Below are positions 9,101-9,651 of a stretch of 64,000 bases of DNA, one piece after another (positions within the stretch are counted from its first letter, which is position 1; each line of letters starts with the position of its first letter). Below the pieces are notes generated by a model, which was not told the DNA's origin, searched no databases, and was given only the letters and a program-made list of their open reading frames with translations. The translations under genes and the position numbers were made by a program. The DNA lies in IMG/VR virus record IMGVR_UViG_2718218305_000006; one strand, 5' to 3'. Origin of the DNA: a virus. Lineage: Duplodnaviria > Heunggongvirae > Uroviricota > Caudoviricetes.

Positions 9101-9651
9101 ACATCAGACGGAAAGCTGACCGCTAAAAATGCGGATATCAGTGGCAGTGTGAATGCGAACTCCGGGACGCTCAACAACGTCACGATTAACGAGAACTGTC
9201 GGGTTCTGGGAAAACAGTCCGCGAACCAGATTGAAGGCGATCTCGTTAAAACAGTGGGCAAAGCTTTCCCCCGGGACTCCCGTGCACCGGAACGGTGGCC
9301 ATCAGGGACCATTACCGTCAGGGTTTATGACGATCAGCCGTTTGACCGGCAGATTGTTATTCCGGCGGTGGCATTCAGCGGCGCTAAACATGAGAGAGAG
9401 AGCATACTGATATTTACTCCTCATGCCGTCTGATAGTGCGGAAAAACGGTGCTGAAATTTATAACCGTACCGCGCTGGATAATACGCTGATTTACAGTGG
9501 CGTTATTGATATGCCTGCCGGTCACGGTCACATGACGCTGGAGTTTTCGGTGTCAGCATGGCTGGTGAATAACTGGTATCCCACAGCAAGTATCAGCGAT
9601 TTGCTGGTTGTGGTGATGAAGAAAGCCACCGCAGGCATCAGTATCAGCTGA
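6173..9651 (+). pseudogene. J: Tail tip/central fibre protein J-like, frameshifted near the C-terminus at a (GA)5 tract
   Basis: Matches prophage Y J over most of its length; reading frame stops at 9433 and the conserved C-terminal receptor-binding region continues in another frame (9394-9651). Confidence 0.75.

Follow-up and report, generated by a model that had tools for sequence, protein, structure and literature searches.

The question raised by this locus is why the J gene of a lambdoid prophage changes reading frame exactly within a short run of GA dinucleotides, and whether this break represents a genuine inactivating slip, a reversible repeat-mediated switch of the receptor-binding domain or an error of assembly, the three readings offered by the initial annotation. 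The window, by which we mean the whole stretch of DNA analysed (64,000 nucleotides), carries a Sakai Sp12-type lambdoid prophage of typical E. coli O157:H7. Our analysis indicates that J in this defective prophage is very probably a real, fixed and inherited frameshift pseudogene.

The J gene lies in a long ORF at 6131–9433, with its annotated ATG at 6173, and the frame break is described by the following features:

6173–9433, + strand: truncated frame of J (tip attachment/host specificity), identified from the ORF list, translation, RefSeq, Pfam and structure matches
9392–9402, + strand: (GA)5G tract, GAGAGAGAGAG, the site of the +2 nt insertion
9431–9433, + strand: premature TGA in the shifted J frame, from sequence and translation
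9403–9651, + strand: 3' end of J left stranded in the −1/+2 frame, coding for wild-type residues 1077–1158 (82 aa) followed by a stop

The factual details previously given on the J frames and the tract were all right. J is frameshifted at the (GA)5 repeat at 9392–9402, the sole exact copy of GAGAGAGAGAG within the 64-kb window, and its frame ends at the stop codon at 9431–9433, giving a product of native residues 1–1076 plus 10 out-of-frame residues (1086 aa, in comparison to 1158 aa for the intact protein). The C-terminal region was said to continue in another frame from 9394, and the frame at offset +2 (equivalent to −1) is indeed closed by a TGA at 9391–9393 and open from 9394 to the stop at 9649–9651. 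Removal of a single GA unit had been proposed to restore one continuous frame; when one GA was deleted in silico, a single ORF of 1158 aa with no internal stops was obtained, uninterrupted from 6173 to 9651, which also settles the concern that the corrected C-terminal frame might not be continuous. In the intact allele, (GA)4G is read as GAG AGA GAG and codes for Glu1074-Arg1075-Glu1076.

The repaired 1158-aa J matched PF24801, PF13550, PF24421, PF24489, PF09327 and PF12421, all far above the cut-offs, in the Pfam series FNIII-A_GpJ, Phage-tail_3, Ig_J, Ig_J_second, Phage_Tail_Tip and Ig_GpJ_C, and it aligned to phage lambda J structures (8iyk, 8xcj and others) with E=0 over residues 1–835 and 865–1157. 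The full gpJ domain set is therefore present in order in the repaired protein; in its present state, the gene is a pseudogene. PF12421 (Ig_GpJ_C), the receptor-binding domain, spans residues 1028–1158; since the break falls after Glu1076, 49 of its 131 residues are kept, 82 are lost and 10 unrelated residues are gained, and the stranded 3' end of J represents the distal 63% of this domain. A second J gene serves as an internal control:

55984–59459, + strand: second, intact J paralogue in the neighbouring prophage, with 84% nucleotide identity to the first J

The ORF of this paralogue is continuous through the C-terminal domain and the GA run is absent at the homologous place.

The GA run is not above chance in itself; the non-random feature is the exact coincidence of the frame break with the run. 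One dinucleotide run of at least five units was observed in the window in comparison to 0.65 expected from composition shuffles, 49% of which held at least one such run, and Tandem Repeats Finder did not report the GA run in the window even at its lowest threshold (minimum score 30). Homologues code the same motif as GAGAAAGAG, GAGCGGGAG or GAACGGGAG, in which the run is interrupted or replaced. As the run is a product of codon choice alone (GAG AGA GAG) and homologues differ in this respect, the repeat does not appear to be under selection.

The J lesion is already known from public annotation and literature. RefSeq records gpJ as a pseudogene ('frameshifted') in Z570 at the same coordinates and likewise in EDL933 (EDL933_RS09810), and the Sakai annotation splits J into ECs_2235, ECs_2234 and ECs_2233, the last of which is a 71-aa CDS corresponding to window positions 9436–9651. 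This orphan 71-aa ORF, present only if J is split, has been called on 610 contigs in a large protein collection. Independent translation of this ORF was also considered and the ORF was judged non-functional, having a GTG start, no Shine-Dalgarno-like sequence upstream and coding for an Ig-domain fragment. Asadulghani et al. (2009) listed the host specificity, integrase, repressor, portal and head functions of Sp12 as defective (Table 1; PMC2669165) and found no Sp12 excision, replication or packaging. No relevant report was retrieved in a literature search on slipped-strand events in O157 tail genes. What is mildly new is limited to how (GA)4 and (GA)5 are spread over the lineages and to the occasional (GA)4 and (GA)3 variants described below.

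The segment at 9100–9700 (601 nt) differs from the Sakai Sp12 and EDL933 loci by one unrelated SNP at 9216, where the window has A in place of the T seen in all genomes compared, so that a Leu codon of J becomes Gln. This SNP is private to the window, as no exact match at 9216 was found in a collection of 5,426 genomes, and the best records differ from window positions 5200–12200 at this base only. All of the best 60 records (60/60) carried (GA)5, and 229 records were at least 99% identical to the segment. The (GA)5 allele was found in approximately 220 complete O157:H7 genomes (figures of 220–230), being identical in Sakai, EDL933, TW14359, EC4115 and more than 200 others, and approximately 97% of typical O157:H7 genomes carry this one out-of-frame allele. 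Among 18 near-identical isolates of the UK Z-series, 7 kb of sequence was identical except for one unrelated mismatch and the tract was invariant.

Tract-length alleles were searched for with synthetic (GA)3, (GA)4 and (GA)6 queries, and the comparison of GA copy number across related strains that had been called for thus gave (GA)5 in approximately 220 genomes, (GA)4 in five records and (GA)3 in one, while no (GA)6 allele was retrieved. The five records with an otherwise identical (GA)4 allele were DEC5B, 493/89, PV15-279, F3113 and TX 265-1. In O55:H7 DEC5B and sorbitol-fermenting O157 493/89, J is annotated as intact (1158 aa), and the prophage is orthologous, with the same truncated L, absence of K and I, lom, tail fibre, DUF1076 gene, nleG7 and IS256; in PV15-279 and F3113, (GA)4 is accompanied by loss of the N-terminal part of J. 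The outgroup orthologue in DEC5B and 493/89 appears intact and to differ by the indel only, and these alignments point firmly to (GA)4 as the ancestral state and to a J lesion that is clonally common to the descendants.

The genes surrounding J show what was left of the tail module when the frame was lost. Those bearing on this point are:

5548–5910, + strand: truncated minor tail gene L, from the RefSeq annotation of Z570 and EDL933
9719–10318, + strand: lom, intact, same prophage
10383–11967, + strand: side tail fibre gene, intact, same prophage
12081–12656, + strand: DUF1076/NleG-like gene, intact, same prophage
13367–14017, + strand: nleG7, intact, same prophage

The tail module runs H, M, J, lom and tail fibre in order, but in the window lineage L is cut short at about 363 nt and both K and I are deleted, so that neither is found between L and J (5911–6172). 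This L-K-I lesion is also present in EDL933, O55:H7 DEC5B and 493/89, whereas L, K and I are present in Sakai and NCCP 13946. Sakai J is 96% identical near window positions 5548–6172, which suggests recombination with another prophage. As DEC5B and 493/89 combine (GA)4 and an intact J with the L-K-I lesion, the L-K-I deletion preceded the J frameshift, which can be dated accordingly.

Several further observations were made on the same prophage and its surroundings. The window is collinear with Z570 across the first 18 kb (2 SNPs), and this collinearity ends at approximately 18.27 kb (18267), at the junction with the neighbouring tandem prophage. In Z570 the neighbouring prophage carries tRNA-Ile and tRNA-Arg genes, whereas the window is without any tRNA gene. 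The tape measure gene (2134–5214, 1026 aa) is intact in the window, and its orthologue (stretch positions 1–2114) is annotated as frameshifted in DEC5B and 493/89, which may be an assembly-quality issue or independent decay. Strain differences within J are clustered at 6421–6567 (TX 265-1/TW14359 type) and at 6661–7030 (EDL933), and these clusters look like gene-conversion patches from paralogous J genes. The tail fibre gene is approximately 90 nt longer at 11277–11420 than in EDL933 and Sakai, the extra length being located at a 45-nt tandem repeat that codes for collagen-like Gly-X-Y units. At 14167–17825 an IS256-family transposase gene is split by ISEc8 (IS66-family); IS256 is unbroken in 493/89 and also in DEC5B and F3113 as far as the compared stretches reach, and the ISEc8 insertion into IS256 appears to be a marker of typical O157:H7.

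The course of events that best accounts for the above would begin in an ancestor of typical E. coli O157:H7, in which replication slippage may have added one GA to GAGAGAGAG, the codons for Glu-Arg-Glu 1074–1076 of the Sp12-type J. The resulting +2 nt shift would have exchanged the last 82 J residues, approximately 63% of the C-terminal receptor-binding Ig domain, for 10 unrelated residues and a stop. This GA gain would have taken place en route to typical O157:H7, which carries ISEc8 within IS256, and the tail tip of the prophage would already have been unbuildable at the time of the slip, with L truncated and K and I deleted. With the tail tip already dead, the J mutation was probably neutral and passed on clonally. 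Slipped-strand mispairing is the mechanism that we infer, as the gain of exactly one repeat unit would be its signature, and parsimony favours a single event. A genuine inactivating slip, the first of the readings originally offered, is thus upheld by the ancestral orthologue with (GA)4 and an intact J and by the occurrence of (GA)5 in approximately 220 O157:H7 genomes. Two observations run against parts of this account. The Sakai-type prophage has L, K and I, so that the argument from an already dead module fails for some lineages, and the few deviant tract lengths could point to a higher rate of change here than at an ordinary pseudogene site.

These deviants are rare. TX 265-1, a typical O157:H7, has (GA)4 with the frame restored and J annotated as intact, and its J equals that of at least 34 (GA)5 genomes (TW14359, EC4115, SS17, TX 376-2 and others) minus one GA; a slip back, gene conversion or an assembly difference can each produce this state. 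A literature search on TX 265-1 returned a tir genotype (4) and strain lists and did not find its phylogenetic position. An IS3-family element is located between the truncated L and J at positions 1695–2908 of the TX 265-1 stretch. The single (GA)3 record, NCCP 13946, has a J otherwise identical to that of Sakai and is still frameshifted, as is strain 1613, in which the final G of the tract is lost (1 nt). Within an otherwise invariant 600 bp, the 11-nt run varies most, as would be expected of a short repeat in a gene without selection. The rare variants represent only ordinary repeat instability or errors, and some of them (1613, NCCP 13946 and perhaps TX 265-1) may be assembly errors.

The reading of the GA run as a contingency locus, in which slipped-strand mispairing would act as a reversible on/off switch for the receptor-binding domain of J, draws on the same variants. 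The repeat lies inside an ORF exactly at the frame break, four length states occur in approximately 230 genomes ((GA)5 in most, (GA)4, (GA)3 and the 1-nt loss), and the (GA)4 of TX 265-1 restores the frame on a (GA)5 haplotype background. We nevertheless regard such a switch as very unlikely. Close relatives show next to no on/off polymorphism in repeat number, with three deviants in approximately 225 typical O157:H7 genomes, dominance of a single OFF allele, no (GA)6 and no variation at all across the Z-series isolates, and the frame is also lost in two of the three rare variants, a pattern more in keeping with neutral drift than with selection for an ON state. Five units (11 nt) are also short, and known dinucleotide phase-variable loci usually have more units. 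A run of this length is expected by chance in 64 kb, and the tract is neither longer than chance nor conserved in homologues, which interrupt or replace it. With K and I lost and L truncated in the window lineage, an ON allele could give no working tip, and the Sp12 prophage neither excises nor is packaged (PMC2669165). The proposed reversible switch is thus unsupported, given a nearly fixed allele, an unconserved run and a tail module that had already lost K, I and part of L when the slip occurred.

A further reading carries a slight chance, namely that the GA run is a low-rate two-way hotspot that occasionally re-opens the J domain, or that +2 slippage makes trace amounts of wild-type J. If this were true, the seemingly dead Sp12 J would be a spare part for other O157 prophages through recombination or complementation, and by either the hotspot or the slippage route it would be a usable source of J for borrowing within the pool of defective prophages.

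The slippage route by itself, a translational recoding in which a +2 ribosomal slip within the run gives low levels of exact wild-type J, is extremely unlikely. It is true that tRNA-Glu on GAG or tRNA-Arg on AGA would re-pair perfectly two bases downstream and that, because the run is a perfect repeat, any +2 slip within 9392–9402 yields the wild-type J sequence. AGA is a rare codon in E. coli, and the scan of the window found no tRNA genes, and hence no tRNA-Arg(UCU), which would be relevant to this codon. Slippage by +2 is rare, however, and the site has neither the slippery sequence and stimulatory structure nor the conserved two-frame layout of programmed frameshifts: the 40-nt overlap at 9394–9433 contains no X XXY YYZ heptamer, the fold of the downstream 98 nt is unremarkable (z = −1.5, with 17 of 200 shuffles giving folds at least as stable), and a single frame is used in the ancestor and in every homologue sampled, contrary to what is seen with programmed frameshifts.

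A sequencing or assembly artefact with a true sequence of (GA)4 is almost certainly wrong, for although short repeats are error-prone on some platforms and isolated odd alleles (1613, NCCP 13946 and perhaps TX 265-1) may be such errors, the same (GA)5 tract recurs in the more than 200 complete genomes, Sakai and EDL933 among them, that were sequenced independently by many laboratories over many years, the split-gene ORF is found on the 610 contigs, and the allele follows lineage, with (GA)4 in O55:H7 and sorbitol-fermenting O157 and otherwise in PV15-279, F3113 and TX 265-1 only.

In summary, the frameshift in J adds to the decay lesions of a well-studied defective prophage and matters little in itself. 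The change from (GA)4 to (GA)5 is a clean marker that separates typical O157:H7 from O55:H7, sorbitol-fermenting O157 and the PV15-279/F3113 type, with TX 265-1, NCCP 13946 and strain 1613 as exceptions. The (GA)4 and (GA)3 variants also show that short repeats in pseudogenes drift and that tract-length calls from single assemblies need to be checked against reads.

The closest known systems are the J genes of the reference O157:H7 strains. Sakai Sp12 J and EDL933 gpJ represent the same locus with the same (GA)5 tract as the window. Sakai J has an additional upstream frameshift that is not in the window J, and Sakai has K, I and the 3' part of L, which are lacking from the window and likewise from EDL933, DEC5B and 493/89. 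In comparison to lambda J, the repaired window protein is full length and collinear with the same domain families, whereas the gene as it stands is missing the last 82 residues, the greater part of the receptor-binding Ig domain. The window J also departs from lambda J in the sequence of its C-terminal domain, which may indicate that its receptor need not have been LamB. Simple sequence repeat contingency loci, such as the dinucleotide repeats in Helicobacter or Haemophilus surface genes that undergo slipped-strand phase variation, involve the same physical event, in that the gain or loss of a repeat unit within an ORF shifts the frame, and J shows one apparent back-slip of this kind in TX 265-1. 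The J run differs from these loci in being short, at chance level, unconserved, nearly fixed and located in a non-functional module.
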